A stretch of 64,000 bases of DNA from Chloroflexota bacterium (GTDB lineage Bacteria > Chloroflexota > Dehalococcoidia > UBA6926): contig JAPOOK010000051.1 in assembly GCA_026713485.1 (NCBI GenBank), positions 914 to 64,913 on the forward strand. The letters are read 5' to 3'. The notes below the pieces were generated by a model. That model saw only the letters and a program-made list of their open reading frames with translations, ran no database searches and was not told the DNA's origin. Both the position numbers and the translations under genes were made by a program. This document shows, piece after piece, positions 4,715 through 52,019 of the stretch. Each line of letters opens with the position of its first letter. Position 1 is the first letter of the stretch.

Positions 4715-4925
4715 CCGTGATATCCCCTCCCGATTACTTTTTCCGGTTGAGTAACTCGCCATCGCGGCAATAGTGCCGTGATCGGCGAAACCCCCTCCCG
4801 ATCTGCCCTACCACGTGGGCCACTGTAGCTAGCAGATACTAGCAGAGCGACGCCTTATTGTCACCATTCTGAGGCATGTCAGGCGGCGCAAAATGCCACC
4901 TGACATGCACGTAGTCGTCAGCGCC

Positions 4926-5833: not shown

Positions 5834-6562
5834 CTAAAGAGTTGCTGCTAGCGCCGCCTCTATTCGCAAACCCTCTGCCAACGTGACGTCCGCCCCCCGC
5901 CGCAGTGCAGCCTTCGTCGCCGCCCGTGCCTCATGCGGCAGCCGACGTGTCTCAGCCAGCAAGGTATTTGTCATCTCTGCCAAGCGCTCCGCAGGTATAA
6001 CGCGGTGTATTACTCCCATCCGCAGAGCCTCTTCCGCATCGAACCAGCGGCTTGTCAGCAGCAGGTCCAACGCCTGTGCTCGCCCAATCACACGCGGTAG
6101 AGATTGGCTTCCCGTCGCGAACGGGATCATCCCCAGCGCCACCTCAGGCAGTCGGAACCGCGCATCATCCGTCGCGATGCGAAAATCGCAGCACAGGGCC
6201 ATTTCAAGGCCGGAACCGATAGAAAACCCGTGCATCGCCGCTACTGTTGGCACCGGCAGGGAGCGCAGCAGCGACCACACATCGCGCAGGTACCGTGCCT
6301 CACGAGCAATGACGCGTGATGGGGCGGTCCCGAACTCCGTCAGGTCCGCTCCCGAGCAAAATGCTCGCTCACCTGCGCCCGTAATCAGTACGGCGTCCAG
6401 GTCAGGATTCGCGTGCAGCTCTGTCAGGATGGCGAAAAGGTCATCCCGCATCTGAACGTTGAATGCGTTCAACTGATTAGGGCGATTGAGCGTGATGTGC
6501 GCGAGACCGGAATCATCCACCTCGCACAGAGCCGCCGGCTCGTTCTGTCCCGACTCCGTCAT
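5834..6562 (-). CDS. Enoyl-CoA hydratase/isomerase (crotonase fold)
   Basis: LNRPNQLNAF...ITGAGERAFCSGADL...GFSIGSGLEMALCCDFRIA crotonase oxyanion-hole motifs. Confidence 0.75.
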   Translation of the reverse strand: MTESGQNEPAALCEVDDSGLAHITLNRPNQLNAFNVQMRDDLFAILTELHANPDLDAVLITGAGERAFCSGADLTEFGTAPSRVIAREARYLRDVWSLLRSLPVPTVAAMHGFSIGSGLEMALCCDFRIATDDARFRLPEVALGMIPFATGSQSLPRVIGRAQALDLLLTSRWFDAEEALRMGVIHRVIPAERLAEMTNTLLAETRRLPHEARAATKAALRRGADVTLAEGLRIEAALAATL

Positions 6563-7068: not shown

Positions 7069-7587
7069 CTACTTGAGGAATCCGATGGAGAGAATGTACC
7101 CGGGCGGATCCCCTCGACTTGCCCGCACTGCCGCAACAATCGTCCACACAATTGAAACGATGCTGAGCCCGATGACGAACGGGATGCCGATGAGCAAGAA
7201 AGAGAACAGGACGGCAATCACTATCCAGATGGTCATGCTGATCTGAAAGTTGAGCGCCCGCTTTCCGTGGAAGTCGAACATGTCTGAGCGCGCTCGGAAC
7301 ATGAGCCAGACAACCAGCGGAGCAATGATATTAGCGAAAGGGAAAAGCAGTTCGGCAAACGCGCTCAGATGCACCAGGAGCGACCAGTTGCGCTCCTCCG
7401 GGTTGCTCACCGGGCCGTAGTAGGCTTGGCTGCCCACGCCCGGAGAGGAGCTTGTTACCGCGGGATCGGCAGCTGAGCCCGGCACGTAATCCCCCTGCTG
7501 ACTTTCCTCAGCCTGGGGCTGCTGATCGCTATCGTCTGATTCGTCGTCCGGCCTGTCCTGCTCCGCCTGCGTCATCGCACACCTCAA
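7069..7587 (-). CDS. DUF4870-family small membrane protein (copy 2), acidic/Pro-rich N-terminal tail
   Basis: EERNWSLLVHLSAF...HGKRALNFQISM. About 45% identical to the downstream copy. Confidence 0.5.
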   Translation of the reverse strand: MRCAMTQAEQDRPDDESDDSDQQPQAEESQQGDYVPGSAADPAVTSSSPGVGSQAYYGPVSNPEERNWSLLVHLSAFAELLFPFANIIAPLVVWLMFRARSDMFDFHGKRALNFQISMTIWIVIAVLFSFLLIGIPFVIGLSIVSIVWTIVAAVRASRGDPPGYILSIGFLK

Positions 7588-7646
7588 TCCTGCCTATAAG
7601 ACGCCACCAATTGTAAACCTGGGGCGGGAAGGCGTCAAAGAACTTG

Positions 7647-8465
7647 CTACTCCCCTCTGAACTCCGGATCCCGCCGCTCAAGGAAAGATTGAATCCCCTC
7701 CTCGCGATCCTTCGTCGTTTGCAAGATCATCGTGAGGTCAGTCTCCAGCAGGATGCCCTGGTCAAGCGTCATCTCAGAGCCTGTCGAGATAACTTCTTTC
7801 GCGTAACGCGCCGCAATCGGCCCGCCGGCAAGTATCTGCGCTGCTATCTCCTGCGCCGTGGTCAGAACGTCGACGGGTGGCGCCACCCGATTGACCAGCC
7901 CCATACCCAGCGCCTCTTCGGCTCCTATGGTTCTGCCGGTCAGCAAGAGATCCGTCGCATGGGCAGGCCCCACGATGCGCGGCAGGCGCTGAGTCCCACC
8001 GTCCCAGGGAATGAGTCCTTGCAGCGCCTGACCCATCCGGAACTGGGCCGTTTCCGCGGCCACGCGGATATCTGCCGCCAGCGCCAACTCAAGCCCCTGG
8101 TCATAAGCGTCTCCATTAATGGCGGCGATAACGGGAAACGGTAGGGAGGCGACGGCGCTTGCGCATCGATAGCTGTCAAACAACGCTTGAGCCACGTGTC
8201 CCGATGCGGCCTCAGCAGATTCAGTAAGGAAAGACCGGCTTGCCCCTCGTGAGAAAGCAGCCGTATCGCCGCTGGGCCCATCCTTCGCCTGATCGACCCC
8301 GGTGACTATCAGCGCGTCAAACGGGCTGTCCTCCCGTAATGACGCGCACAGATCCCTCAACGCGAACGCCAATGCGCGGTCGATGAGATTGTCGGGAGGG
8401 CGGTTTAGGACGGCAATCAGCAGACGGCCCTCAGGCCGAAGTGTGATCGAATCGTTGGTGCTCAT
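7647..8465 (-). CDS. Enoyl-CoA hydratase/isomerase family protein
   Basis: Crotonase-fold motifs (AAINGDAYDQGLELALAADIRVAAETAQF). Start at MSTNDS (ATG 8465). Confidence 0.7.
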   Translation of the reverse strand: MSTNDSITLRPEGRLLIAVLNRPPDNLIDRALAFALRDLCASLREDSPFDALIVTGVDQAKDGPSGDTAAFSRGASRSFLTESAEAASGHVAQALFDSYRCASAVASLPFPVIAAINGDAYDQGLELALAADIRVAAETAQFRMGQALQGLIPWDGGTQRLPRIVGPAHATDLLLTGRTIGAEEALGMGLVNRVAPPVDVLTTAQEIAAQILAGGPIAARYAKEVISTGSEMTLDQGILLETDLTMILQTTKDREEGIQSFLERRDPEFRGE

Positions 8466-8600
8466 ATATGCTGCACGGCTGTCCTTGCCACGTAACACGA
8501 TTGTAACCCTCGTGTAACTGGCACGACACAGAACCGGCACAGCATTGGTGATGTTACGCGGGCAAAGCCGCGTCGTTTGGTGTTCTGGAAGGAGGACAGG

Positions 8601-9827
8601 ATGGGCGAGTTCAATAGCGGCGATACTGCCTGGATGTTGATGTCGACAGCACTTGTGCTGTTCATGACACCGGGCCTTGCTTTCTTCTATGGCGGACTGG
8701 TGCGTGGACGAAACGTCATCAGCACGATTTCACTCAGCTTCGTGTCGATGGCCGTGGCCAGCCTTGTCTGGGTGCTCTGGGGATACAGCCTGGCATTCGG
8801 CGACGGCGGAGACCTTAACGCATTTGTAGGCGATCTTTCCTACATAGGCCTCTCCGGCATCGGCATCAACGATGGAGGGAACATTCCTGATCTCCTCTTC
8901 GTTGCATTCCAGATGATGTTCGCCATCATCACACCCGCCCTGATAACGGGCGCAATCGTGGAGAGGTTCAAGTTCACCACGTACATCGTCTTCCTTGTCC
9001 TGTGGCTGACCCTCGTCTACGCCCCCATTTGTCACTGGGTCTGGGCCGAGGGCGGCTGGCTCTTTGAAATGGGTGCGCTTGATTTCGCGGGCGGCACAGT
9101 CGTCCACATCAACGCGGGCGTCGCGGCGCTCATCGCCGCTGTCCTAGTGGGACGCAGGCGCAGGCCGGCACTTGAGCCGCACAACGTCCCGTACGTCGTT
9201 CTAGGCGCGGGCATCCTCTGGTTCGGGTGGTTCGGCTTCAACGCCGGTTCCGGCCTGGCGGCCAACGGGCAGGATGCAAACGCTCTGCTCGTCACCAATA
9301 CGGCTGCGGCTGCAGCAGCGCTGACGTGGGGAATCCTTTCATACATCCAGACTGGTCGAATTAGCACTGTCGGCATTGCCACCGGCGCAGTGGCCGGCCT
9401 CGTGGCCATCACACCGGCTGCGGGATTCGTCAATGTCATGGGCGCTCTTGTGCTCGGAATAGGCGCAGGAATCATCCCGTACTTCTTCGTGCTCTATAGG
9501 CCGCGAATGGGTTTCGACGATGCGCTTGACGTCTTCGGCGTGCACGGCGTCGCAGGAATCTGGGGCGCGCTTGGTACCGGAGTCTTCGCCATTGAGGCTA
9601 TTGGCGGCACGGCGGGACTGCTTGAAGGCAACCCGGAGCAGATGGGAGTGCAGGTGGTCGGTGTTGTCGCAACCCTCGCCTACTCCGGCGTCGCCACATT
9701 CGTCATCCTCAAGGTGCTGGACTTGATCCCCGGCCTTGGACTGAGGGAACCGGAGCCTGCCGAAGATGAGGGTCTTGACTTGGCTGCGCACGGTGAGCGC
9801 GCGTATGTCGCGGACGGCGCAGACTAG
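8601..9827 (+). CDS. amt: Ammonium transporter (Amt/AmtB family)
   Basis: DTAWMLMSTALVLFMTPGLAFFYGG...GAIVERF...HGVAGIWGALGTGVF Amt signature. ATG 8601 is preceded by AGGAGG. Confidence 0.85.
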   Translation: MGEFNSGDTAWMLMSTALVLFMTPGLAFFYGGLVRGRNVISTISLSFVSMAVASLVWVLWGYSLAFGDGGDLNAFVGDLSYIGLSGIGINDGGNIPDLLFVAFQMMFAIITPALITGAIVERFKFTTYIVFLVLWLTLVYAPICHWVWAEGGWLFEMGALDFAGGTVVHINAGVAALIAAVLVGRRRRPALEPHNVPYVVLGAGILWFGWFGFNAGSGLAANGQDANALLVTNTAAAAAALTWGILSYIQTGRISTVGIATGAVAGLVAITPAAGFVNVMGALVLGIGAGIIPYFFVLYRPRMGFDDALDVFGVHGVAGIWGALGTGVFAIEAIGGTAGLLEGNPEQMGVQVVGVVATLAYSGVATFVILKVLDLIPGLGLREPEPAEDEGLDLAAHGERAYVADGAD

Positions 9828-21961: not shown

Positions 21962-22660
21962 ATGACCACTCCCAAACCTGCCGACGCCAGCTTTGACATC
22001 GTCATCTTCGATCTCGATGGAACATTGATTGACTCCCGCATCGGCATCCATTCCTCCGTCGTTCACACACTCAAGGAGATGGGCGTCCCGGCCGTCGACC
22101 AGGAGTTGCTCTCCCAATTCATCGGCCCGCCACTCATTGATTCATTCCAGGGCATTGCCGGCATGAGCGAACCCGACGCTGAACGAGCCGTCGCTGTCTA
22201 CAAGGAATACTTCGCCGTGGAGGGCATCAAGGGCTTTGAGGTCTACGAGGGCGTGTCCGAGATGCTATGGCTGCTGCGCGCCAGCGGCGTCCGGATGGCC
22301 ATCGCCACCACAAAGGACGAGGTCTTTGCCCACGAAATCGCCCTCAACGCCGATTTCATGCCATTCCTTGAGGCCGTGATCGGCAGCGACCGTGAAGGCA
22401 CGATGGTCCGCAAACCGGAACTCGTCGCCGCCGCCCTAAGGGCCTTGAAGCTGCCCGCCCCACTCCCACAAGACACAGAAACGCCCCGCATAACGATGGT
22501 CGGCGACCACGCCCTCGACATCCTCGGCGCAAAGGCCAACAACATCGCCTCAATCGCCGTCACCTACGGCTTCGGCAACAACGAAGAACTGCAACAGGCT
22601 CAGCCTGACCATATGGCCAATTCAGTGATGGAACTGAGAAACCTCTTACTGGGGGTCTAG
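21962..22660 (+). CDS. HAD-superfamily hydrolase (phosphoglycolate phosphatase-like, subfamily IA)
   Basis: Motif I IVIFDLDGTLIDS and motif IV GDHALDI. Confidence 0.7.
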   Translation: MTTPKPADASFDIVIFDLDGTLIDSRIGIHSSVVHTLKEMGVPAVDQELLSQFIGPPLIDSFQGIAGMSEPDAERAVAVYKEYFAVEGIKGFEVYEGVSEMLWLLRASGVRMAIATTKDEVFAHEIALNADFMPFLEAVIGSDREGTMVRKPELVAAALRALKLPAPLPQDTETPRITMVGDHALDILGAKANNIASIAVTYGFGNNEELQQAQPDHMANSVMELRNLLLGV

Positions 22661-22673
22661 CGGCCAATCGAAT

Positions 22674-23033
22674 CTAGGCGTGCAGCAGTCCGCGAGGAAC
22701 GAGTTGTTCGCCCCTGGGATCCACCATCAACTCAAGACCCTCGAGCGCATAGGCGCCCAATAGAGGCTGAGCCTCCTCCACGCCAAAGGCCACGATAGTG
22801 GGTACGGACCTGCCGCCATTCAGAGCAACGAACGCGAACCCAATGTCCATTTCCTCGGTGCGCCCATCCGCAAACACGAACCGGGATTCTCCAACACGTT
22901 GGACGCCGATTCCATCAAGCACAGACGATGGCAGGATACTGTAAAACGCGCCAGTATCTACAAGCGCGCCAATCTCAACCTCACCCTGCCCCGAAAGGCT
23001 CGCCAACTGAATCGTCGTCTCGAAAGTACTCAT
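22674..23033 (-). CDS. Retropepsin-like (clan AA) aspartic peptidase domain protein
   Basis: LVDTGA catalytic motif in a ~119-aa single-lobe fold. Lies immediately downstream of the CoA-transferase array. Confidence 0.5.
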   Translation of the reverse strand: MSTFETTIQLASLSGQGEVEIGALVDTGAFYSILPSSVLDGIGVQRVGESRFVFADGRTEEMDIGFAFVALNGGRSVPTIVAFGVEEAQPLLGAYALEGLELMVDPRGEQLVPRGLLHA

Positions 23034-23059
23034 GTCTCGATTTTACACGCCGGATATTC

Positions 23060-24430
23060 CTACGGTATCGACGGATCGTAATCCATCCCGATGTGGCCCT
23101 TCTTGTCGAACTCCGCGTACTCCTCGTCTGAATAGCCCAACACCGACTTATAGATATATTCGTTGTCCTCGCCCAGACGTGGCGAGTGGCGACGGGGCCC
23201 AACCCCGGGATTGTTCATCGACTTGAACGGCGTCATTAGCGCCTTATGCGTCCCCGCCTCCGGGTGTGTCACCCGCGTGAAGAATCCACGATGCTCCAGA
23301 TGCCGGTCCTCGGTCGCGTCGCGTTCATTAATCACAGCGCCGGACGGTACCCCCACCAACTGAAGCTGTTCCATGATCCATGAGGCGTGCTTTTCTGCCG
23401 TCCACGCGCTGATGATGACGTCCAACTCCGCCCTGTTCTCAAACCGTGATTCGTTGTCCTTGAAGCGCGGATCATTCACAAGCTCCGGATGACGCATCCT
23501 CTCGCACAGCGCCTGCCACTGCTCCTCATTCCGGCACGCGATCGTCACCCACTGGTCTTCGCCCTGCGTTCGATACACGTTGTGCGGCGCCAGATAGAAA
23601 TGGTTGTTGCCCATCTGCGTCCACACGCGCCCGTTCATGCTGTAGTCCATCACGAAATCGCCAAGCAACGGCACAAAATTCTCCGCCGTCGGCGCTTCGA
23701 TAAGCAGCCCCTTGCCGGTGCGCTTGAGGTATCGCTTGCCCATCAGGAACGCAAGTGTCGCGCCGATGCCGCTCGCCGCGTCCGACGGCACGCCCGCCGG
23801 CGCATACTCCGGTGACAGGTCGGGATACGTCCGAATCAGCGGATGCCCTGAGATGGCCTCCATGTGATTGCCCCAGGAACGATAGCTCTTGTACGGCCCG
23901 TCCAGCCCGAACGCCGGCATCCGAATCATGATCAGCTTCGGGTTGATCTCAGAGAGCCGTTCCCATGTGATGCCCTGACGTTCCATGCTTTGCGGCAGAT
24001 TGTTCTCAACCAGCGCGTCTGAAACGGCAACGAGTCGCTCCAGTGCCTCCTGACCCTCTTCTGTCCGCAGATTCACGGTCATCGACAACTTGTTGCGGCC
24101 ATGCGCATTGAAAACGGCGCTGCGATTCCACGGGCGTTCCCCCGGCTCACTGTCCGGCATCCCCATGCCCATATTCGTCTGAGCCTGCACCGTCGCAAGC
24201 GCGGGGCGCGCCAGCATTCCCCGCGTCGTGGACGCAAAATGCGTCGTCGACTCCACCCGTATAATCTCCGCGCCCCAGTCCGCCAACTGCATCGTCCCGT
24301 ACGGACCGGCAAACACGACCGTGAAGTCGATAATGCGCATTCCGGCCAGCGGCAGGTCAGGATCGGGCTTCGTAGGGTTGCCCGGGTTCGGCGCCCCGAG
24401 ACTATTCACACTTGAGTTATCCGCTGTCAT
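23060..24430 (-). CDS. Family III CoA-transferase (CaiB/BaiF), B-type subunit, copy 1
   Basis: MRIIDFTVVFAGPYGTMQLADWGAEIIRVE N-terminal CoA-transferase III signature and conserved Asp region (IEAPTAENF). Confidence 0.8.
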   Translation of the reverse strand: MTADNSSVNSLGAPNPGNPTKPDPDLPLAGMRIIDFTVVFAGPYGTMQLADWGAEIIRVESTTHFASTTRGMLARPALATVQAQTNMGMGMPDSEPGERPWNRSAVFNAHGRNKLSMTVNLRTEEGQEALERLVAVSDALVENNLPQSMERQGITWERLSEINPKLIMIRMPAFGLDGPYKSYRSWGNHMEAISGHPLIRTYPDLSPEYAPAGVPSDAASGIGATLAFLMGKRYLKRTGKGLLIEAPTAENFVPLLGDFVMDYSMNGRVWTQMGNNHFYLAPHNVYRTQGEDQWVTIACRNEEQWQALCERMRHPELVNDPRFKDNESRFENRAELDVIISAWTAEKHASWIMEQLQLVGVPSGAVINERDATEDRHLEHRGFFTRVTHPEAGTHKALMTPFKSMNNPGVGPRRHSPRLGEDNEYIYKSVLGYSDEEYAEFDKKGHIGMDYDPSIP

Positions 24431-24447
24431 GGCTGTCTGCTCCGTTC

Positions 24448-25680
24448 CTAAACAACCCCATCCGCTCTCAGGCCGGCGATATCCTCGGCGCTCAGCCCAA
24501 GTTCCGTCAGAACCTCGCCCGTGTGCTCGCCCAGCAGTGGCGCCCGCCGCCTCTTCGGCATTTCCGCGCCCTCGCGGTGCAGCTTGTGGTGATATCCCGG
24601 GTACTTGATCGGCCCTGTTGTCGGGTGGTCGATCTCCTGGAAATAGTTGCGCGCCATGAACTGCGGATTGTTAATGAGATCTTCGATCGTGTTAAGGGGC
24701 CCGCCCAATACGGCAAACTCCTCGCACGCCGCCCGCACCTCTTCTTTGGAGCGCTCCAGCGTCCACGGCACGATGTACGCCAGAAACTCGTCGATGCGAT
24801 CCGGCTCCGCCCGGCCCTCCGCCGTCCCCCACTCCGGCGTCTCCAGCAACTCTTCCATACCGATCATCCGGATGATGTTGGGGATAAACCGAGGCCCGCC
24901 GGTCATAAGGAAATAGCCGTCGGAGCACGGATGCACGCCGCCGCCCACCGCCACCGCGCGCCCCGGTCGGGTCCCAAGATGCCCCGTGTATTGATAGCCC
25001 ATCAGGCGACCAAGCCGCATATCGATGGAGTGCATGGCCGTCTCAAAGACGCTAACGTCCATGTAATCGCCGTCTGCGTCACGGAACTCCACCTGGAACA
25101 GTCCCAACGCGGAGGCCAGCGCCGCTGCATACCCCGCGTGGTAGCTGACCATCCGGCCCGCCGTCTTCAGCGGTTCGTTATCAGCGTCGCCGGAACTGAT
25201 CATGCTCCCGCCCATCGCGTACAGGTTTAGCTCGATGCCGATGTAGTCCCGGTACGGCCCGTCCTGCCCATAGTTTGAGACGGACGTCATCACCAGCTTG
25301 GGGTTGATCTTCTTCAGGTCCTCATACCCCAGCCCAAGCGCCTCCATCGTCCCGGGGGAAAAACTCTCCACCACAATCTGCGCGCCCTTAACAAGCTCCT
25401 TCACGATCTCACGGCCCCGCTCCGACTTGAGATCGAGCGTGACGGACCGCTTGTTGGTGTTCAGGAACATGAACAGGCCGCTGCGCTCAAGCCCAGGCAC
25501 GTCCTTATAGAACGGAGGCATGGATCGCGTGGGATCGCCTGTCTCAGGCCTCTCGATCTTGATGACATCCCCGCCGTAGTCGCCAAGGATACGGGTACCG
25601 AAAGGGCCGGCCGTCATATGCGTCAGATCGATAATGCGCACATCATCCAGCGGCATGATTGGCGTCCCGGGTGTCGTCAT
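24448..25680 (-). CDS. Family III CoA-transferase (CaiB/BaiF), A-type subunit, copy 1
   Basis: VRIIDLTHMTAGPFGTRILGDYGGDVIKIE. ~57% identical to 27047..28336. Confidence 0.8.
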   Translation of the reverse strand: MTTPGTPIMPLDDVRIIDLTHMTAGPFGTRILGDYGGDVIKIERPETGDPTRSMPPFYKDVPGLERSGLFMFLNTNKRSVTLDLKSERGREIVKELVKGAQIVVESFSPGTMEALGLGYEDLKKINPKLVMTSVSNYGQDGPYRDYIGIELNLYAMGGSMISSGDADNEPLKTAGRMVSYHAGYAAALASALGLFQVEFRDADGDYMDVSVFETAMHSIDMRLGRLMGYQYTGHLGTRPGRAVAVGGGVHPCSDGYFLMTGGPRFIPNIIRMIGMEELLETPEWGTAEGRAEPDRIDEFLAYIVPWTLERSKEEVRAACEEFAVLGGPLNTIEDLINNPQFMARNYFQEIDHPTTGPIKYPGYHHKLHREGAEMPKRRRAPLLGEHTGEVLTELGLSAEDIAGLRADGVV

Positions 25681-25724
25681 CCTCTTCTCCCCGTTCCCTC
25701 TAGATAACGCCTCAGTCCCTTCGC

Positions 25725-27044
25725 CTAATCGGCAGGGTCGAGGTCGTAATCCATGCCGATATGACCGGCTGCTTCGTACTCGGCGTAGTCCTTATCGGAA
25801 AAGCCCAGCAACTCCTTGTACACATACTCGTTGTCCTCGCCGAGGCGCGGCGGTCCCCACCGATGCCGACGCGGCGTATTCTTCGCCTTCCAGAGCGTGC
25901 TCGTGTACAGGTGCGTTCCGACCTCCGGGGCCGTCAACTCCTCCCAGAAACCGATTTCCTTCATATGTGGGTCTGCGTAGGCGTCCGACTCGGCCATCAC
26001 CGTGCCTGCTGCGATGCCGTTCGCCTGCAGCACGTTCATCGCCTCGATGGCGTCCTGTGTTACCGTCCAGGTCAACAGCTCGACATCCAGCTCGTCGTGA
26101 TGTTCCTGCCTCCCAGCGAGCGTCGCAAAGCGGCTGTCCGCCGCCAGGTCGGGCCGCTGCATGACAGTCCCGGCCACCGCCCGCCACGCCTCATCCGACT
26201 GCACACTGATGGCGATCCATCGATCATCCCCCACGCACGGGTACACGCCCTGCGGCGCATAGATCGGGTCTCGATTCCCCTGGTGCTCGGTTCGCAGACC
26301 GTTCATGGAGTAGTCCATGAACTGATCTCCCAGGTACGTCATGAAATTCTCGGCAGTTGAAAGCTCGATGAACAGCCCCTCGCCGGTCTTATCCCGGTGG
26401 CGGAGCCCCGCCGAAAACGCCAACGCCCCCGCCGCTCCGCCCGCCGCGTCCGCCGTCAACGTGTTCCCCGTCAGGCTCGGGTCCTCGCCCCGGTACCCCA
26501 TGAACGAGTAGTGGCCGACGACCGCCGCCATGTGGCTGCCGAACGTTCGGTAGTTCTTGTACGGGCCGTCGATGCCGAAAGCCGGCTGGCGGATCATGAT
26601 GGCGCGTGGATTCACCTTGTGAACACGCTCCCACGTGACGTTCACGCGCTCCATGCTGATGGGCACGTTGTTTTCCATGATCCCGTCGGATATCTGCAGC
26701 AGCCGATCAAATACCTCTTGCCCCTCAGGACGTCGCAGATCGACGGTCATGCTCCGCTTGTTGCGAGCGTGCGCGTTGAATGAGGCCCATCGATTCCACG
26801 GCCTCTCACCGGGCTCATGATCCGGGAACTGCGCCGATCCGCCTCCCAAACTCGGCATACCTCTATCGGGCCGCGGCATCATGCCCCGCGTCGTAGGCGG
26901 GAAGTGCTTGATCGATTCAATGCGAATGATCTCCGCGCCCCAATCCGCCAGCATCTGCGTGCCATAAGGCCCCGCCCAAACGACCGTGATATCGAGAATC
27001 CGCACACCCTCAAGGGGCAGCCGACGTGATCCGGTGCTGACCAT
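25725..27044 (-). CDS. Family III CoA-transferase, B-type subunit, copy 2
   Basis: VRILDITVVWAGPYGTQMLADWGAEIIRIE. Paralog of 23060..24430. Confidence 0.8.
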   Translation of the reverse strand: MVSTGSRRLPLEGVRILDITVVWAGPYGTQMLADWGAEIIRIESIKHFPPTTRGMMPRPDRGMPSLGGGSAQFPDHEPGERPWNRWASFNAHARNKRSMTVDLRRPEGQEVFDRLLQISDGIMENNVPISMERVNVTWERVHKVNPRAIMIRQPAFGIDGPYKNYRTFGSHMAAVVGHYSFMGYRGEDPSLTGNTLTADAAGGAAGALAFSAGLRHRDKTGEGLFIELSTAENFMTYLGDQFMDYSMNGLRTEHQGNRDPIYAPQGVYPCVGDDRWIAISVQSDEAWRAVAGTVMQRPDLAADSRFATLAGRQEHHDELDVELLTWTVTQDAIEAMNVLQANGIAAGTVMAESDAYADPHMKEIGFWEELTAPEVGTHLYTSTLWKAKNTPRRHRWGPPRLGEDNEYVYKELLGFSDKDYAEYEAAGHIGMDYDLDPAD

Positions 27045-27046
27045 TC

Positions 27047-28336
27047 CTACACCACCCCTTCCGACCGAAGACCGGCAATCTCCGCCTCGTCGCGTCCCAA
27101 CACATCGCGCAGAATCTCATCTGTATGCTCTCCCAGCAGAGGAGCGCGTTTACGGGCGGGCAGCCCGCTGCCGTCCACAAAATGCAGCTTCACGTGATAG
27201 CCGGGGTAGGCGATAGGCCCGGTTGTCGGATGATCGATCTCCTGGAAGAACTGCGTATGCTGCAGTTGCTCATCGTTGTGCAGGTCTTCGAACGAGTTGA
27301 TCGGCCCGCCCAGCACGCCAAACTCTTGGCACTCCGCGCGGATCTCCTTCTTGGTGCGCTCCAGCATCCACGGCACAATCACAGCCAACGACTCATCGAG
27401 CCGCTCCGGCGCCGATCGCGCCATCGGCGTCGACCACTCTGGCGTCTGTAGCAGGTCGCCCATGCCCACCATCTGCATGAAGCGCGGGAACATCGCCGGC
27501 CCCGCCGTCGTCATGAAATAACCGTCCTGGCAGATCCACGTCCCGGAACCGATAGCCCCTGCCGGCCACGGTCGTGTTGAATTGCCCCCGCCGTACTGGT
27601 ACCCCATCAGGTAGCTCTGGCGACGGTCGATGGCGCCCATCCACACCGGGAGCGCTCCCACGTCCAGGTGATCGCCTTCGCCGCTTGCCTCGACGCTCAG
27701 CAAGTGGATGGACGTGGCTGCCGCCGCAACCGCCCCCACCTGGTACGCCGCCACGCGGCCCCCGAAGTTCAGCGGTTCCCGCTCCGGGTGGCCGGTATTG
27801 ATCATCGCCCCGCCCATCGCGTAGGAGGTTATTTCCGTCGCCTCCCAGTCGCGATACGGCCCCGTCTGGCCGTAGTTGCTGATGGACGTCATGATCAGGC
27901 GCGGGTTCACAGCGCGCAGCGTCTCGTAGTCCAGCCCCAACGACGGCATCACGCGCGGCCGAAAACTCTCAACCAGCACGTCCGCGTCTTTCACCAGGTC
28001 GAGAACGATCTGCCGCCCGCGCTCCGACTTGAGGTCCAACGTCATGGAGCGCTTGCCAAGATTGGTGTACATAAACAATCCGCTGCGCTCAAGGCCCGGC
28101 TGATCCTCGTAGAACGGCGGAATATCCCGCCCCGGATCGCCCACACCGGGCCGCTCGATCTTGATCACGTCAGCGCCCCAATCCGCGAGACGACGCGTCC
28201 CAAACGGCCCCGCAACGTGCCACGTCAGGTCAATGACCCGAAGGCCGCTAAATGGCAAGACCGCTGCGTCCTGCCGCTCCCCTTGTTGTTGGCTTGCCAT
28301 AGACATGCCACCCATCCTCCCCAATGGATGCCGCAT
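27047..28336 (-). CDS. Family III CoA-transferase, A-type subunit, copy 2
   Basis: LRVIDLTWHVAGPFGTRRLADWGADVIKIE. Its stop overlaps the start of the downstream B-type gene (ATGA). Confidence 0.8.
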   Translation of the reverse strand: MRHPLGRMGGMSMASQQQGERQDAAVLPFSGLRVIDLTWHVAGPFGTRRLADWGADVIKIERPGVGDPGRDIPPFYEDQPGLERSGLFMYTNLGKRSMTLDLKSERGRQIVLDLVKDADVLVESFRPRVMPSLGLDYETLRAVNPRLIMTSISNYGQTGPYRDWEATEITSYAMGGAMINTGHPEREPLNFGGRVAAYQVGAVAAAATSIHLLSVEASGEGDHLDVGALPVWMGAIDRRQSYLMGYQYGGGNSTRPWPAGAIGSGTWICQDGYFMTTAGPAMFPRFMQMVGMGDLLQTPEWSTPMARSAPERLDESLAVIVPWMLERTKKEIRAECQEFGVLGGPINSFEDLHNDEQLQHTQFFQEIDHPTTGPIAYPGYHVKLHFVDGSGLPARKRAPLLGEHTDEILRDVLGRDEAEIAGLRSEGVV

Positions 28337-28395
28337 TATGGCACTTGCCGCCCCGCCGCGAAAGGGTAGAGCGCCCCATTATTCCGCACAATCAA

Positions 28396-28434
28396 TATGG
28401 GTTGTATGGGTGCAGGAGTATGGGTAGTATGGGT
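28396..28434 (+). promoter_or_regulatory. Four direct repeats of TATGGGT (spacing 9/14/9) immediately upstream of vapB; putative antitoxin operator
   Basis: TATGGGTtgTATGGGTgcaggagTATGGGTagTATGGGTctATG read directly from the sequence. Confidence 0.4.
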
Positions 28435-28436
28435 CT

Positions 28437-28700
28437 ATGAAGACGACTCTCGAAATCCACGATGAACTCCTACGCCGTGCAAAGCTGCACGCGAAGAAAA
28501 AGGGACGCACACTGCGCTCAGTGGTGGAGGATGGGCTTCGTCGCGCTCTCGACGACGAGCAACCGCCCAACCGGTACAAAATGCCGGACATGAGGGTCGG
28601 AGACCCCAACGGGGAAAACCCGCTCGAAAAGTACACGTGGGCGGAACTCCGGGACATGATCTACGAGAGGCCCGAATACGGAGAGTCAGAACCTGAGTGA
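28437..28700 (+). CDS. vapB: Type II antitoxin (VapB-like, RHH/DNA-binding N-terminus)
   Basis: 87-aa basic N-terminus. Overlaps the downstream PIN toxin gene by 4 nt (ATGA). Confidence 0.6.
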   Translation: MKTTLEIHDELLRRAKLHAKKKGRTLRSVVEDGLRRALDDEQPPNRYKMPDMRVGDPNGENPLEKYTWAELRDMIYERPEYGESEPE

Positions 28701-29137
28701 TAGCTGTCGATTCGAACCTGCTCGTCTATGCCCACCGCTGGGAAGCCACTGAAGACTATGAAGCCTTTGCGCTGATCCAGTCCCTGGTGGATGGCGACGA
28801 TGCCTGGGCCATTCCGTGGCCATGCATCTACGAGTTCTTCGGAGTCGTAACGAACCGCCGTATCTGGCGAGACAGTGCCACCACACCGGAACAGGCATGG
28901 TTGCAGATATCCGCATGGGCCGCCTCACCATCCCTGCGCCTACTGGGCGAAACAGACGGGTTTCTGGAAATCCTGGGACGCTTTGCTCAGCGACCGCGCG
29001 TCAGGGGCGGTGTCATCCACGACGCGCGGATAGCCGCGATTTGTGTGGCCCATGGTGTGAATACGTTGCTTACCAGGGATCGCGACTTCGCCCTCTTCCC
29101 CGAACTTCCAACCCGTGATCCCTTCTCAGCCCGGTAA
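28697..29137 (+). CDS. vapC: PIN-domain ribonuclease toxin VapC
   Basis: MIAVDSNLLVYA (Asp5), followed by conserved acidic residues (TRDRDF). Confidence 0.7.
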   Translation: MIAVDSNLLVYAHRWEATEDYEAFALIQSLVDGDDAWAIPWPCIYEFFGVVTNRRIWRDSATTPEQAWLQISAWAASPSLRLLGETDGFLEILGRFAQRPRVRGGVIHDARIAAICVAHGVNTLLTRDRDFALFPELPTRDPFSAR

Positions 29138-29149
29138 TCGTCCCGTCCC

Positions 29150-29926
29150 CTACCGCTCCAAATCCCAAAGCCCCCGGCCGCCCGCGTCCACGCCGCCGTC
29201 AACGGAAAGCACTTGTCCCGTCACCCACGACGATTCGTCGGACGCAAAATAGAGCGCCGCGTGCGCGATGTCTGACACATGCCCCCGCCGACCTAGCGCC
29301 TGCTCTGGCACATCAATGCCGTCCGCATCAGCGCCAAGCCGCTGGCGAATCAACCCCGGCGCAACCACGTTCACCCGGATATTGTCCTGCCACAGTTCCC
29401 GCGCCAAGTTGCGCGCCAGTCCGATAACACCTGCTTTTGCAGCGCCATACGCGACATTGGAGCCGCGCTGAACGCTCTCGCTTGCCGTGATGAAGATGAT
29501 CGATCCGCCGCCCTGCTGTTTCATCACCGGCTGCATGGCCCGCGCCAGGTTTGACGGCCCCTCCATCGTGTTCCCGATAGCCTGACGCCAAAATCCCGGC
29601 TCCACATCGCTCAACGTCACGGATGGATCGAAGAAGCCGCCCCCGCCGCTGTAGAGGACATCTACACGTCCCCCGCCGGCGTCACGCGCCGCATAAACGA
29701 TTCGCTCCGCGTCCGCCGCATCCGCCACATCCCCCTGAATTGCTTGCGCTCTTTCTGAAGCCGGTGTTCCCAACCGCCGAACAACACCCAGCGTTTCCTC
29801 TAGGTGCTCCGCGCCCCGCGCAACAAGGATGACCGTCGCCCCCTCCTGCGCGCATAGCAGGGCAGTGGCCCGCCCCATCCCAGGCCCCGCCCCAGATACC
29901 AGAACCGTCTTCCCCTCAAGCCTCAT
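29150..29926 (-). CDS. SDR-family oxidoreductase
   Basis: TGAGPGMGRA Rossmann motif and YGAAKAG catalytic YxxxK. Confidence 0.8.
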   Translation of the reverse strand: MRLEGKTVLVSGAGPGMGRATALLCAQEGATVILVARGAEHLEETLGVVRRLGTPASERAQAIQGDVADAADAERIVYAARDAGGGRVDVLYSGGGGFFDPSVTLSDVEPGFWRQAIGNTMEGPSNLARAMQPVMKQQGGGSIIFITASESVQRGSNVAYGAAKAGVIGLARNLARELWQDNIRVNVVAPGLIRQRLGADADGIDVPEQALGRRGHVSDIAHAALYFASDESSWVTGQVLSVDGGVDAGGRGLWDLER

Positions 29927-30027
29927 GTGAGCGTTCTCCTTTGGCGGTCAAATACTTGGCAATGCTGTCTGTGGAGTGATTGTGTCGGAGCGCCGTGAAT
30001 CGTGACAAGTGGCCTAACTGCCCCTAA

Positions 30028-30450
30028 TCACACCGGGATGACGTAGAAATCCACTCGCCTGTCGCCGGGCTCGACAGTGAACGTAGTGTCGTTGATGAAA
30101 ATCAGCGCGCCATCACTATCGTAGAATCGCGCGCCGACCGAGTATTCGTTCCTGTCGCTGAGTGGCTCATCCCATTCCAACTCATACTCAAGCGGCAGCG
30201 TTGTTACGTTGTCATATTCGCGACTCGCAATCTCTATCGACGATGCATCGGCCAACGACACATCCCGCAGCTGCACGACAACCCGCGACGAGGGTATGTG
30301 CGACAACTCATCCGCCCCCTCAAGAGTGATCTCGCCCCGGAGCGAGGTCCCCCCGCCACACCCACTGACGACAAGCATCAACGCCGCCAACCCCAACAGA
30401 CAGGCCGACAATAGCGCTAACCGCCGCGGTCCTAAACGTTCACTCCTCAT
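30028..30450 (-). CDS. YbaY/YscW-like lipoprotein
   Basis: Signal peptide plus LVVSGC lipobox. ITLP..LEYELEWDE...YSVGARFYDSDGALIF pattern of YbaY-type lipoproteins. The start may instead be ATG 30480. Confidence 0.4.
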   Translation of the reverse strand: MRSERLGPRRLALLSACLLGLAALMLVVSGCGGGTSLRGEITLEGADELSHIPSSRVVVQLRDVSLADASSIEIASREYDNVTTLPLEYELEWDEPLSDRNEYSVGARFYDSDGALIFINDTTFTVEPGDRRVDFYVIPV

Positions 30451-31327: not shown

Positions 31328-31397
31328 CCCTACGCGCCGATTGCGGGTACGGGCGTACAATCAATCGGATAAAGATTCGATTCTGAGGGGGTGGGGA

Positions 31398-32261
31398 ATG
31401 GAGCATCAATACATCAAGGTCGATAGAGACGATCTCGGCGTTGTCACGATTGCGTTCAACGTGCCCGAAGCGCTGAACCCGTGGCTGATTCCGCTCATGG
31501 AGGAGATGACCGTCGAACTCGATCTCATTGCCGCCAACCCTGATGACCGAGTTGTCATCTTCACTGGCACCGGACGCTCATTCTCAGCTGGGGGCGATGT
31601 CGGCCCCATGGCGGGCGCGGGCGGCGACCGCCCCATGCCGCACTTCATGAAAGAGAAAGAGAACCGCCAGCGCGGCGGCTGGAACATCCCCACAATGTCC
31701 GCCACGGAGCGAATGAAGAACGAGATGCTCAACGGACGCCGCATCCACATGCAGGTCTGGGAACTGGACAAGCCCACCATCGCCGCCGTCAACGGCGTCG
31801 CGGCTGGCGCAGGCTGCGACCTCGCCCTCGCCTGCGATATCCGCCTCGCCAGCACCAACGCCCGCTTCATCGAGGTCTACGTGCGACGCAGCCTGGTTCC
31901 CCTTGATGGCGGAGCGTACTGGGCCCCCTATCTGCTGCCACACGGCATCGCGATGGAGATGCTCCTCGCCGGAGAGGCCCTCAGCGCCGAAGACGCGCAT
32001 CGTTTCGGCCTCGTCAACCGCGTCTATGAACCGGACGAGTTGATGCCCGCCGCGCAGGAGCTTGGCCGCAAGATGGCGCAGGGCCCCGCCGTCACCCAGC
32101 AGCTCGTCAAGCACATGGTGCGAGAGATTCACACCAAGGGCTACGAAGAGCACTGGAAGTACATCGACGCCGCGCACCAACACACACGAGAAACCCACGA
32201 CTACAACGAGGGCGTCCGCTCCTTCGTCGAAAAGCGCCCCCCCGAATTCAAAGGCTACTAG
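31398..32261 (+). CDS. Enoyl-CoA hydratase/isomerase family protein
   Basis: Crotonase motifs (FTGTGRSFSAGGD, AAVNGVAAGAGCDLALACDIRLA). Start MEHQYI with GGGGG RBS. Confidence 0.7.
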   Translation: MEHQYIKVDRDDLGVVTIAFNVPEALNPWLIPLMEEMTVELDLIAANPDDRVVIFTGTGRSFSAGGDVGPMAGAGGDRPMPHFMKEKENRQRGGWNIPTMSATERMKNEMLNGRRIHMQVWELDKPTIAAVNGVAAGAGCDLALACDIRLASTNARFIEVYVRRSLVPLDGGAYWAPYLLPHGIAMEMLLAGEALSAEDAHRFGLVNRVYEPDELMPAAQELGRKMAQGPAVTQQLVKHMVREIHTKGYEEHWKYIDAAHQHTRETHDYNEGVRSFVEKRPPEFKGY

Positions 32262-35466: not shown

Positions 35467-37164
35467 ATGACGCAAGGCACTTTCGAGGCTGGCGAGGTCG
35501 TACTGGCAAAGTTGTTTAGCGACGACTATCTCTTTCGCATGCCATTCTACCAACGTCCCTACTCATGGACTAAGGAAGAAGTGGGAGAACTGCTAAACGA
35601 CCTTCTAGGCGCAATGGATGGGGAATCAGATCCAGAGCCCTACTTCTTAGGTAGCATTGTCCTAATAAGCCACTCTGGATCATCTGAACATGAGGTCATA
35701 GACGGGCAGCAGAGACTGACTACGTTGACAATGTTATTCTGTGTCCTTCGCGAGCTAACGGAAGACCCGGACGATTATGGTAGCCTCGACCAGAGAGTAC
35801 GAGAGAGACCCGACAAATATGCCGGCAGCAAGAATCGATTTAGGCTCCAACTTAGGGACAAAGATGAGGAGTTCTTCCGTGCCAATGTGCAAGAATCTGG
35901 GGGTATAGCCCGGTTCTTGTCCATAGAAACCAAGTATCCGTCAGACCCGCAGGAGTTAATTCTCGAAAATACAAGGCTCCTATGGAACGAACTGTCTAAG
36001 CTGAGCCAAGCGGAGCGTGACAATTTAGCTAGTTTCGTAATCGGGAATTGCTACCTGGTGTCTGTGAAGGCGTATGACCCAGACTCTGCTCATAGAATAT
36101 TCTCAGTATTGAACGCTAGAGGTCTTGATCTAACACCCACGGATGTCCTGAAAGCCGAGGTCATTGGGGATATCCCTGCCAATGAGGGTGAACGCTACAC
36201 ACAAGCATGGGAAGACATTGAAGATGAACTGGGACGAGACAGATTCCGAGAGTTATTCGGGCATATTTTCGTTATCGAAACCGGAGATCGATTTCACCGA
36301 GAATTGGCGAAGGCATTCAGCGAGGAGGTTCTTACCCAGTACAATGGTTCCCAGTCTATTGATAAGACTTTAGGCAGATATGCAGAGGCATTTCAGATAG
36401 TTACTTCTGCCTCGTACGAAAGCGCCCGTCTCGCTGAAGATATCAACCGACATCTCGTTTACCTCCAACGGCTCGGAGACCACCCTGACTGGGTGCCAGT
36501 CGCCATGGTGATGTACGATCGGTTCGGGCTGGAGCCGGAGATATTGTTGGAACTCTTGAAGGGGCTCGATAGGCTCGCGTATGTCATGTTCATTAATGGC
36601 ATCAGGAGGGATGCTAGAATCAGCCGTTATGACCCAGCCATAAAGGCGGCTAAAGACAAGAATAAGGACGCTAGAGAAGTGTTGGCATGCCTGCAACTCA
36701 CTGAGGACGAGCAAGCCGAAGTCGTCCGCTCCCTAAATGGTCCGATTTATGGTACTCGTACAGTTGGAAGGTTCGTGCGACCACTCCTATTGCGACTTGA
36801 CAGTATGCTTGCCGATGCGGGAGCGAAATATGACCCCAAGATTATCACTGTAGAACACGTCCTCCCACAGTCTCCCGAAAAAGACTCTGAGTGGACTAAA
36901 GTCTTCCCTGATGAAGATGAGAGACGCGACTGGACAAACCGGCTTGCCAACTTGGTTCTATTGTCACGAAGCAAAAACTCGCGCGCCCAGAACTACGAGT
37001 TCGACCGCAAAAAGCGTGAGTATTTTCAGAAAGACAGTTCCACGGTATTTGCTTTGACGACGCAGGTCATTGGCGAAGAAAAATGGACCCCACGAGTCCT
37101 TGCCCGCCGGCAAAAGGGCTTGGTTGATGCGTTCCTGAAGGAGTGGGGTATTTCAAACTCCTGA
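35467..37164 (+). CDS. DUF262 (ParB/Srx-like, DGQQR) + DUF1524 (His-Me finger) protein; GmrSD/SspE-family modification-dependent nuclease; lies in a low-GC island
   Basis: N-terminal motifs FYQRPYSW and VIDGQQRLTTL. C-terminal motif EHVLPQS...NRLANLVLLSRSKNSRAQN. Local GC ~50% versus ~65% in flanks. Confidence 0.8.
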   Translation: MTQGTFEAGEVVLAKLFSDDYLFRMPFYQRPYSWTKEEVGELLNDLLGAMDGESDPEPYFLGSIVLISHSGSSEHEVIDGQQRLTTLTMLFCVLRELTEDPDDYGSLDQRVRERPDKYAGSKNRFRLQLRDKDEEFFRANVQESGGIARFLSIETKYPSDPQELILENTRLLWNELSKLSQAERDNLASFVIGNCYLVSVKAYDPDSAHRIFSVLNARGLDLTPTDVLKAEVIGDIPANEGERYTQAWEDIEDELGRDRFRELFGHIFVIETGDRFHRELAKAFSEEVLTQYNGSQSIDKTLGRYAEAFQIVTSASYESARLAEDINRHLVYLQRLGDHPDWVPVAMVMYDRFGLEPEILLELLKGLDRLAYVMFINGIRRDARISRYDPAIKAAKDKNKDAREVLACLQLTEDEQAEVVRSLNGPIYGTRTVGRFVRPLLLRLDSMLADAGAKYDPKIITVEHVLPQSPEKDSEWTKVFPDEDERRDWTNRLANLVLLSRSKNSRAQNYEFDRKKREYFQKDSSTVFALTTQVIGEEKWTPRVLARRQKGLVDAFLKEWGISNS

Positions 37165-50896: not shown

Positions 50897-51898
50897 TTAT
50901 GGAATCCAGGCTCTCCACACAGACTCGTTGGCATCAACCCACTCTTGTGCGGCCAGGCGCACCGTGAGGTCGTTCGCAGTCAGGTTGAGCACAATTTCGT
51001 TCTGTTGTGCGTTGGTCATCTGGAAGTTGTTGAGGAACTCGTATGCCTCCGGAAACTCCTCCTGAAGACCAGGCCAGATCAGCTTGGTGACAGGATCCGT
51101 TGGGTAGCCGCAGTCAAACCTCTCGCCATCCGGATAGCAATCTGAAGTCCATTCCGGCATCTCAATCGGGATAAGGTCGTACTTGGCGTGTGCCCAGTGA
51201 GGCTCCCACAGGTACGTGATAATCGGGTCGCCTCGCTGGAAAGCAGCATCCAGCTCGGCAAGCGCCGCGCCCTCATACCCGGCGAATACCACTTGGAAGT
51301 CGATACCAAACGCTTCGAGGCGTTCCTCCGGCCTCGTGTCCCACGCAGGCGTGAATTCAAGGAGCCTGCCGCTCGTGCCCGTGTCGCTCGTGGCAAAGAC
51401 GGACTTGTACTGGTCCATGTCGGCAACGCTGCGGAGATTGGGGGCGACGGCCTCTATGCCTCGCTCAGGGTCGCCGTTGACGATGTAGGAAGGCACATAC
51501 CAGCCCGTCTCTCCCGATATTCCTACCGGACCCATGCGATCCACCGTGGCCTCTTCGCCGTCTACGTATTCACCAAGGAGATCAGCGCTGTATGACGGCC
51601 AGTTGCAGCAAACGAAGTGAAAGTCGCCATTTTCGAGCCCGAGGAAGAGCGGTGCCGAATCGGCGGGCGCGAACTTGGTCGCGACCGTGTGGCCCATCTC
51701 TTGCTCCAACAGGATCTGCGCCACAGCCGTCGTGACGAGCTGCCCGTTCCAGTCCTGGTCGACGAGATAGAGTGTGCCTCTCTCGTCGTCTGACTCCATT
51801 TCCTCGTCGGCTTGTTCACAGGCCACCCCAACTGCAAGGCCAAGGGCCAACAGGCCTGCCAATAGGATTCCGATCCACTTGTTCTTCACTATGCTCAT
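50897..51898 (-). CDS. ABC transporter substrate-binding lipoprotein, glycine betaine/proline (OpuAC/ProX) family
   Basis: Signal peptide plus lipobox VAC. Trp-rich aromatic-box residues typical of betaine-binding proteins (GWYVP, WEPHW). Confidence 0.7.
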   Translation of the reverse strand: MSIVKNKWIGILLAGLLALGLAVGVACEQADEEMESDDERGTLYLVDQDWNGQLVTTAVAQILLEQEMGHTVATKFAPADSAPLFLGLENGDFHFVCCNWPSYSADLLGEYVDGEEATVDRMGPVGISGETGWYVPSYIVNGDPERGIEAVAPNLRSVADMDQYKSVFATSDTGTSGRLLEFTPAWDTRPEERLEAFGIDFQVVFAGYEGAALAELDAAFQRGDPIITYLWEPHWAHAKYDLIPIEMPEWTSDCYPDGERFDCGYPTDPVTKLIWPGLQEEFPEAYEFLNNFQMTNAQQNEIVLNLTANDLTVRLAAQEWVDANESVWRAWIP

Positions 51899-52019
51899 TA
51901 CTCTCCCCTCTCTGGACTAGTGGCGCAAAAGGCAAACCTTGGTCGTTTGCCTCATTGTGCGTCGTCACATAAGCATTCCTCCTTACAGGGTTTGCGGGCT
52001 CTTATTCTGAGTAGCCCCA

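Follow-up and report, generated by a model that had tools for sequence, protein, structure and literature searches.

The window analysed here is a stretch of 64,000 nucleotides (nt) from a Chloroflexota bacterium of the Dehalococcoidia (assembly GCA_026713485.1, contig JAPOOK010000051.1, positions 914 to 64,913), and it contains four consecutive minus-strand genes for family III (CaiB/BaiF) coenzyme A (CoA)-transferases, in which two protein types, A and B, alternate in the order A2-B2-A1-B1. This array had been proposed in a sequence-only reading of the DNA, and all four open reading frames (ORFs) were recovered with exactly the coordinates and order given there. The genes and their junctions are as follows.

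27047..28336, minus strand: A2, 429 amino acids (aa) as the longest ORF; predicted second alpha-class subunit; PF02515
25725..27044, minus strand: B2, 439 aa; predicted second beta-class catalytic subunit; PF02515; member of the B-type cluster
24448..25680, minus strand: A1, 410 aa; alpha-class (BbsE-side) subunit without the catalytic Asp; PF02515, E 3e-91; member of the A-type cluster
23060..24430, minus strand: B1, 456 aa; predicted beta-class (BbsF-like) catalytic subunit; PF02515, E 1e-90; member of the B-type cluster
27042..27049, minus strand: junction of the A2 stop and the B2 start, reading GTG GTG TAG GA ATG, with a 2-nt spacer
24431..24447, minus strand: 17-nt spacer between the A1 stop and the B1 start

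The true start of A2 is probably the third ATG, at 28306, which is preceded by GGAGG, and the A2 orthologue in a related locus (L001) was called at 419 aa, 10 residues shorter. A 4-nt ATGA overlap had been claimed at the A2/B2 boundary, but it is absent: the two genes are separated by the 2-nt spacer, and B2 has no upstream in-frame start. The spacer between B2 and A1 measures 44 nt. Promoter and terminator scans of 22400..30200 gave sites no more numerous than in shuffled sequence and were uninformative on operon structure.

The four proteins, as well as both halves of an 803-aa fusion protein encoded elsewhere in the window, match PF02515 (CoA_transf_3) over the full length, with 293-306 bits each versus a gathering cut-off of 23.3 and E-values of 1e-87 to 1e-91 for the array proteins. 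A search with a profile built from these sequences brought up the four array genes and the fusion and nothing further of family III in the window. None of the named NCBIfam equivalogs compared (formyl-CoA transferase, succinate-glutarate, mesaconate, oxalate, and carnitine CoA-transferases, and mesaconyl-CoA isomerase) was reached, the best scores of the four proteins being 160-218 bits against cut-offs of 413-750.

The division into two subtypes holds: A1 and A2 are 56.8% identical and B1 and B2 50.5%, versus 26-27% between A and B. The paralogue identity had been put at 55-60%, which is right for the A pair but too high for the B pair. The N-terminal motifs quoted for both subtypes occur in the proteins, and the insertion described after the first strand of the B-types is also present, amounting in the HMMER alignment to 19 residues more than in BbsF, a subunit of benzylsuccinate CoA-transferase. 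Its positions in the two B genes are given below.

24119..24247, minus strand: B-type-specific segment, B1 residues 62-104; 19 residues longer than in BbsF, with invariant columns in the B-type alignment
26787..26912, minus strand: equivalent segment, B2 residues 45-86

In B1 numbering, the invariant residues of this segment are R70, G71, R75, G97, R99, P100, W101, N102, and R103. We take the segment to be equivalent to the part of Oxalobacter Frc in which Trp48 lies, and because of this location it may line the substrate entrance; W48F and W48Q variants of Frc appear among the listed PDB entries.

The most telling feature of the array, overlooked in the earlier reading, is the missing catalytic aspartate in the A subunit. 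The catalytic Asp of family III, which forms the anhydride and thioester intermediates, is taken here to be Asp169 in Frc and Asp178 in BbsF. The residues at this position in the four array proteins are encoded as follows.

23780..23782, minus strand: B1 Asp217 codon (GAC); predicted nucleophile, aligned with the D of 'NYTDHV' (9fn0_B) and of 'AMTDLATG' (human SUGCT)
26448..26450, minus strand: B2 Asp199 codon (GAC); predicted catalytic nucleophile
25144..25146, minus strand: A1 Ser179 codon (AGC); at the catalytic Asp position in the HMMER alignment ('rmvSyhag' versus SUGCT 'amtDlatg') and in the multiple alignment
27746..27748, minus strand: A2 Ala197 codon (GCG); at the catalytic Asp position in the HMMER alignment to SUGCT and in the multiple alignment

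The position of B1 Asp217 is invariant in the B-type alignment. More broadly, all 121 B-class domains carry the catalytic Asp (117 of them from related loci, the others being B1, B2, the C domain of the fusion, and BbsF), and it occurs in none of the 109 A-type domains, where S (61), A (18), G (9), N (7), L (6), T (5), E (2), or F (1) is found instead. The A-types, like the N domain of the fusion with its Ser181, are family members by fold and sequence, and they are not predicted to be catalysts. The PDB title of entry 9fol reads 'BbsEF, D178-CoA adduct'; counting along the chain B alignment places D178 at the Asp of 'NYTDHV', which is aligned with B1 Asp217, so the covalent intermediate of the solved heteromer lies on the B-like chain. 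Chain A of 9fn0 has no Asp at the catalytic position. A literature search for a statement that the catalytic Asp is missing in BbsE gave nothing usable.

The CoA-binding motifs DLT..AGPF.T, GADVIKIERP, N.NKRS, E[SN]F.PG, and G..GP are kept at 95% or more among the A-types, the first of these being degraded in BbsE and in the N domain of the fusion, and the A-types diverge no faster than the B-types (mean identity to own type of 0.65 for A1 and 0.645 for B1). Selection thus acts on the A-types, and binding of a CoA ester may have been retained.

The two types also match different chains of a solved heteromeric enzyme. The best match of B1 in the whole PDB is 9fn0_B (benzylsuccinate CoA-transferase, E 6e-53), with 9fn0_A at only 2e-13, whereas A1 prefers 9fn0_A (1e-47) over 9fn0_B (5e-35) and A2 matches 9fn0_A at 8e-43. 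With chain A labelled BbsE and chain B BbsF, BbsE scores 237 on the A-type profile and 246 on that of the fusion N-domain family, versus 121 and 91 on the beta profiles, while BbsF scores 298 and 248 on the beta profiles versus 180 and 174 on the alpha profiles. By profile score, therefore, the sequences fall into two deeper classes, an alpha class of A-types, the fusion N family, and BbsE, and a beta class of B-types, the fusion C family, and BbsF. Both classes separate from six homodimeric enzymes (SUGCT, Brucella 4ed9 and 10uh, and Frc, YfdE, and CaiB, with Frc from Escherichia coli) in neighbour-joining trees, with bootstrap support of 195/200 for the beta clade and 141/200 for the alpha clade after the atypical protein P0251 had been removed. 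An 80-taxon neighbour-joining run that included P0251 did not recover the two classes. P0251 itself (831 aa, from outside the window) is a two-domain protein whose halves score almost alike on the alpha and beta profiles, and it may be an independently arisen or little-diverged fusion.

The conservation of the pairing was followed in related loci. The B-type profile retrieved 78 loci from species-representative genomes, all of them Chloroflexota, which together with L001 make 79 loci with 204 family III ORFs. The closest relatives are uncultured Dehalococcoidia with genomes of about 1.9-2 Mb, whose orthologues of B1 reach 98% identity to it, and record names suggest that several of them come from sponge, coral, or seawater metagenomes. 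Clustering of 236 domains gave an A-type cluster of 109 and a B-type cluster of 121, the latter including BbsF and the C domain of the fusion; BbsE, the fusion N domain, and three homodimeric reference enzymes remained outside both.

Synteny of A and B is widely kept, since 75 of 94 unfused B genes in the 79 loci have an A gene within 150 nt upstream on the same strand, and the commonest A-to-B spacings are 2 and 17 nt, as in the window. The exceptions to adjacency include genes at locus ends and a few ambiguous ORF calls. In addition, 23 proteins in these loci fuse the two types, all 23 in the order A then B with 6-23 residues between the aligned domains. Partner A and B proteins have diverged together, their distance matrices correlating at r = 0.95 over 104 pairs (maximum 0.06 over 500 partner shuffles). 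Long alternating tandem arrays were also observed, namely B-A-B-A-B-A-B-A-B in L027 and B-A-B-A-B-A-B in L025.

About 24 related genomes retain the four-gene A-B-A-B array, the most divergent with B1 at about 72% identity, and the juxtaposition of the two pairs is therefore old and stable. The two pairs had been described as tandem duplicates. They are indeed adjacent, and a very old duplication is the most that can be read from them, but they are not each other's closest paralogues: when 120 B-types are ordered by their similarity to B1, B2 comes 92nd, and in the corresponding order of 108 A-types relative to A1, A2 comes 72nd. Single pairs elsewhere in the same genomes, as well as fused forms, are nearer to pair 1 than pair 2 is, the closest A-B fusions having 63% identity to B1 and 59% to A1. 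By sequence the pairs belong to distant, distinct lineages and do not look like a recent tandem duplicate, and presumably they are two enzymes with different carboxylate substrates.

The fusion protein of the window, which had been put forward as evidence for an A-B enzyme, is encoded as follows.

61446..63857, minus strand: type III CoA-transferase with two domains, alpha then beta; 803 aa counted from a GTG start codon; two PF02515 domains
62148..62150, minus strand: Asp570 codon (C domain); predicted nucleophile, invariant in a 60-homologue alignment
63315..63317, minus strand: Ser181 codon (N domain); at the Asp position, no acidic residue

Its true start probably lies a few codons downstream of the GTG; homologues are 798-801 aa long. 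The AlphaFold2 model has a mean predicted local distance difference test (pLDDT) score of 91 and a predicted template modelling score (pTM) of 0.93, with residues 1-9 below pLDDT 50, and its best structural matches are BbsEF chains B and D, at a target template modelling (TM) score of 0.90. The N half has 9fn0_A as its best PDB match (4e-48; next 1e-39) and the C half 9fn0_B (4e-57; next 4e-44). In the fusion family the Asp is present in 119 of 119 C domains and missing from 118 of 119 N domains, and the family is large, with 3232 matches at E of 1e-30 or below among 8000 candidates scored, nearly all of about 800 aa.

As support for the array, this protein stands in part. It has the A-then-B order and the same alpha and beta classes, but its domains are not orthologous to the A and B types: the N domain is about 30% identical to the A-types, no nearer to them than homodimeric enzymes are, and the C domain groups with BbsF. 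The stronger fusion evidence comes from the A-B fusions of other genomes, and the window's own fusion is assigned by sequence to the known two-domain type III family of DddD and PtmU4. The name DddD did not occur among the 120 best fusion homologues, and a tblastn search of the fusion against plasmids returned many two-domain relatives at about 31-33% identity, none of them named DddD. An OpuA-type glycine-betaine ATP-binding cassette transporter (binding protein, fused permease, and ATPase with CBS domains; 50897..55381, minus strand) is encoded about 6 kb from the fusion; characterised relatives of the two-domain CoA-transferase family act on betaine-like compounds (dimethylsulfoniopropionate, carnitine), and the proximity may be due to chance.

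For a broader sample, the 150 cluster representatives (at 50% identity) most similar to A1 were taken from 1.8 billion proteins. These best 150 included 108 fusions of an alpha domain without Asp to a beta domain with Asp, and 21 single alpha domains without Asp.

Taken together, the homology, the Asp pattern, the synteny, the fusions, and the co-divergence lead us to infer that A and B associate physically as a heteromeric CoA-transferase of the BbsEF type, in which beta would be the catalytic subunit and alpha a non-catalytic partner, with one competent site per dimer; we hold this with a probability of about 80%. A heteromer of the BbsEF kind had been proposed in the sequence-only reading, and it is supported by the chain-specific homology, the complementary Asp pattern, the adjacency, the 23 fusions, the co-divergence, and the trees. 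A physical alpha-beta (alpha2beta2) complex is backed indirectly by the natural fusions, the co-divergence, and the confident single-chain model of the fused relative.

In the proposed mechanism, the alpha (A1, A2) and beta (B1, B2) subunits would interlock as a dimer, and the nucleophilic Asp would be supplied by beta only (Asp217 in B1, Asp199 in B2), from which a single competent site per alpha-beta dimer would follow, composed of the beta large domain and the alpha small domain. The Asp would attack the donor acyl-CoA, pass through mixed-anhydride and Asp-CoA thioester intermediates, and transfer CoA to the acceptor carboxylate. The alpha subunit, with its CoA-binding motifs kept, Ser or Ala in place of Asp, and evolution as slow as that of beta, would be an obligatory structural partner and not a second enzyme, although it may still bind a ligand. 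The 803-aa protein would represent the same architecture in one chain, BbsE-like in its N domain and BbsF-like in its C domain, in a different subfamily.

Several observations weigh against this interpretation. The related loci were fetched by a B-type profile, all belong to Chloroflexota, and many are orthologues of one another, which means that the counts cannot be treated as independent. The one-to-one coupling is not absolute, because an extra full-length B1-like gene without an A partner directly follows B1 in five relatives, and 0.6-2.2 kb are inserted between A1 and B1 in four (L005, L009, L011, and L015). The extra B1-like genes (L005, L009, L013, L016, and L017, at about 7250..8850) are 78% identical to window B1, and the idea that this ORF is a remnant of the retropepsin-like region found downstream of B1 in the window was rejected, as it is a full B1-like copy. 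The gap between A1 and B1 is 2.1 kb in L005, similar to L009, 1.2 kb in L011, and 574 bp in L015, the closest relative, versus 17 nt in the window; in L009 (3786..5983) it holds two genes for lipoprotein-like products of 320 and 311 aa whose N-termini resemble signal peptides. The support for the alpha clade is moderate (70%), with just six outgroup enzymes, and the assignment of chain A to BbsE and chain B to BbsF is our own reading, based on the JGI name 'BbsF subunit' of one B-type homologue. The intact CoA-binding motifs of the A-types mean that the A site may not be simply 'dead'. Finally, about 12-15 of about 129 diverse two-domain proteins also have an N-domain Asp, the number left as plausible after inspection of 18 flagged proteins, since counting an Asp within two columns had over-called it. 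Asp loss is thus common but not defining for the whole alpha class, and some fused family III enzymes may have two live sites. The minority with an N-domain Asp (or Glu) was seen among proteins P0241-P0390, for example with 'GFQGDYQLG'.

The alternative that survives best keeps the heteromer and gives the alpha subunit a site that is not inert, which would bind a CoA ester and aid or perform a second step, so that the pair would be bifunctional; lyase, isomerase, or intramolecular transfer chemistry, substrate channelling, and allosteric control are the candidate roles. In its favour, the first CoA motif degraded in BbsE and the fusion N domain is intact in the A-types, the residue after the substituted position is a Tyr in 64% of A-types, as it is in BbsE, and characterised two-domain relatives go beyond plain transfer, DddD acting as a transferase/lyase and PtmU4 in sulfur transfer (PMC6006322, PMC4437653). 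However, the residue at the Asp position varies among S, A, G, N, L, and T with no alternative catalytic residue conserved, which argues against chemistry at that exact spot, and the conserved motifs may serve only folding or the dimer interface. We consider such a second active function unlikely.

It could also be supposed that A and B form separate homodimers acting on successive steps of a pathway, A as a non-transferase, with their adjacency reflecting co-regulation. Most characterised family III enzymes are homodimeric (SUGCT, Frc, YfdE, and CaiB among the PDB matches), and canonical homodimeric enzymes score 234-254 bits on the A-type profile, near the value for BbsE. This arrangement has very little probability in view of the natural A-B fusions with their short linkers, the co-divergence of partners, the subunit-specific matches to the two chains of the solved heteromer, and the loss from all A-types of the nucleophile used by all known reactions of family III. 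That B is a self-sufficient homodimeric transferase whose activity is lowered or tuned in mixed dimers by A as a regulatory 'poison' subunit, as the orphan B1-like copies might suggest, is hardly credible, since a permanent inhibitor would then be built into thousands of fusions (108 of the 150 representatives; at least 3232 matches in the fusion family) and the order of the genes, A then B with 2-17 nt between them, suggests that the two proteins are made together in equal amounts.

As a heteromer with a catalytic beta and a non-catalytic alpha subunit, the array enzyme can be compared with three known kinds of family III enzyme. It resembles BbsEF in having two paralogous subunits encoded side by side with the alpha-like gene first, in the correspondence of A to chain A and B to chain B with the nucleophilic Asp in the B-like chain only, and in the fold predicted for the related 803-aa fusion (TM 0.90 to 9fn0_B/D). 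It differs in that identity to the A- and B-type subunits is only about 33-37%, the B-type segment is 19 residues longer and carries an invariant GERPWNR motif, the first CoA motif is intact in the A-types but partly lost in BbsE, and the host is a marine member of the Dehalococcoidia, whereas BbsEF comes from a denitrifying betaproteobacterium. Neither a bbs-type beta-oxidation operon (acyl-CoA dehydrogenase, hydratase, SDR pair [short-chain dehydrogenases/reductases], and thiolase) nor a benzylsuccinate synthase was seen among the window neighbours or the sampled flanking genes, and for this reason the substrate is almost certainly not that of BbsEF. Given this gene context and the low identity (about 35-37% to BbsE and BbsF even for the nearest A/B-type domain), the array proteins are of the BbsEF type and are not benzylsuccinate-specific BbsEF orthologues. 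SmtAB succinyl-CoA:malate CoA-transferase and phthalate CoA-transferase are other heteromeric family III enzymes; a literature search on SmtAB gave nothing usable.

With the homodimeric enzymes (Frc/YfdW, YfdE, CaiB, human SUGCT, and Brucella 4ed9), the array proteins share the Pfam family, the fold, and, as predicted for B, the Asp-based chemistry. The homodimers have two identical subunits, each with Asp, and two active sites, whereas in the array the two subunits share about 26% identity and the Asp is confined to one of them.

The DddD/PtmU4 type has tandem family III domains with the Asp in the C-terminal one, as found in the 803-aa fusion (Asp570) and, in the same domain order, in the A-B fusions of relatives; the four array genes differ in being the split form. 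It was reported that type III CoA-transferases with two domains numbered 2401 in bacteria in 2018, with DddD and PtmU4 characterised, that the conserved Asp lies in the C-terminal domain, and that D430 mutants of PtmU4 are 125-400-fold less active (PMC6006322). One-domain and two-domain enzymes are handled there as separate groups, unlike here, where N domains group with BbsE and C domains with BbsF.

With regard to the surroundings of the array, the following features were noted.

3140..4762: AMP-ligase
5834..6562: enoyl-CoA hydratase
7647..8540: enoyl-CoA hydratase
22674..23033, minus strand: retropepsin-like ORF, 119 aa, with a DTG signature (LVDTGAF)
about 28435..28700, plus strand: VapB-like antitoxin ORF, read by eye, between A2 and the SDR gene
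28697..29137, plus strand: PIN-domain VapC, between A2 and the SDR gene
29150..29926, minus strand: SDR (Pfam adh_short), upstream on the same strand as the array, which it adjoins in L001 too
31341..32261: enoyl-CoA hydratase

Most genes on either side of the array are housekeeping genes or unrelated to it. Downstream lie the small retropepsin-like ORF and genes for a HAD hydrolase, BtpA, RF1, PrmC, and DinB; upstream are the VapB/VapC (PIN) pair on the other strand and genes for the SDR, TauE, an enoyl-CoA hydratase, PdxA, and a Zn-dehydrogenase. A 92-aa ORF at 28379..28657 (minus strand) is antisense to vapB and probably spurious. Three enoyl-CoA hydratases, an acyl-CoA ligase, and an SDR had been cited as neighbours; all exist, but two hydratases and the ligase are 15-20 kb away, separated from the array by housekeeping genes (an ammonium transporter and genes of the S-adenosylmethionine cycle). 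A functional link of the SDR to the array is possible: in L001, where B1 is 91% identical, an A-B-A-B array again has an SDR, TauE, and a hydratase nearby, with carbonic anhydrase in place of VapBC. Among 94 flanking genes sampled from related loci, however, with three representatives of the four-gene array included, just one SDR occurred. The retropepsin-like gene does lie immediately downstream and has the DTG motif, but its Pfam scores fall below the gathering threshold, and it directly follows B1 in some relatives only (L004, L014, L015, and L018; 67-79% identity).

Pfam scans of the larger window genes and of the 94 heterogeneous flanking genes of related loci revealed no conserved catabolic neighbourhood, and substrate prediction from genomic context was dropped for that reason. 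Elsewhere in the window, a GmrSD-type restriction endonuclease gene (35467..37164, plus strand) lies in the stretch of lowest guanine-plus-cytosine content (0.545 at 36-38 kb versus about 0.60 elsewhere), which suggests acquired DNA.

The array is a fairly ordinary, soundly supported addition to the known BbsEF-type enzymes; it brings no new mechanism or kind of system, and its value lies mainly in annotation and experiment design. The SAR202 expansions concern the same phylum and gene family. SAR202 Chloroflexi carry many CaiB/BaiF paralogues per genome, some with DddD as top match, which were counted as individual transferases, and the role proposed for these expansions in Dehalococcoidia/SAR202 is to bring marine organic acids that are refractory into pathways dependent on CoA (Landry et al. 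2017, PMC5395668). Neither alpha/beta pairing nor a missing Asp in one-domain partners is described in the available portions of PMC6006322 or PMC5395668. More speculatively, and with rather low confidence, most of the CaiB/BaiF expansion of marine Dehalococcoidia/SAR202 might consist of obligate alpha-beta units, split or fused, of which the A/B lineage of the window would be a distinct type: its alpha subunit would have a working CoA-ester site without a nucleophile, for a regulatory, channelling, or second-reaction role, and its beta subunit an invariant Arg-rich insertion (R70, R75, GERPWNR) shaping a new pocket to accept an anionic substrate of an unusual kind, drawn from organic matter of marine or sponge origin. 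If the expansion is indeed made up of such obligate units, partners with no catalytic function would account for about half of the paralogues counted.

With regard to annotation, all four genes of the array would be labelled plain 'CoA transferase', and if the A-types act only as partners of B, the apparent number of enzymes is halved. For expression, each pair should be co-expressed or a natural fusion used. In terms of classification, split BbsEF-type enzymes and 'two-domain' enzymes of the DddD/PtmU4 type look like the same alpha-beta architecture. In Dehalococcoidia/SAR202, correct unit counts and constructs would have to precede the finding of substrates.

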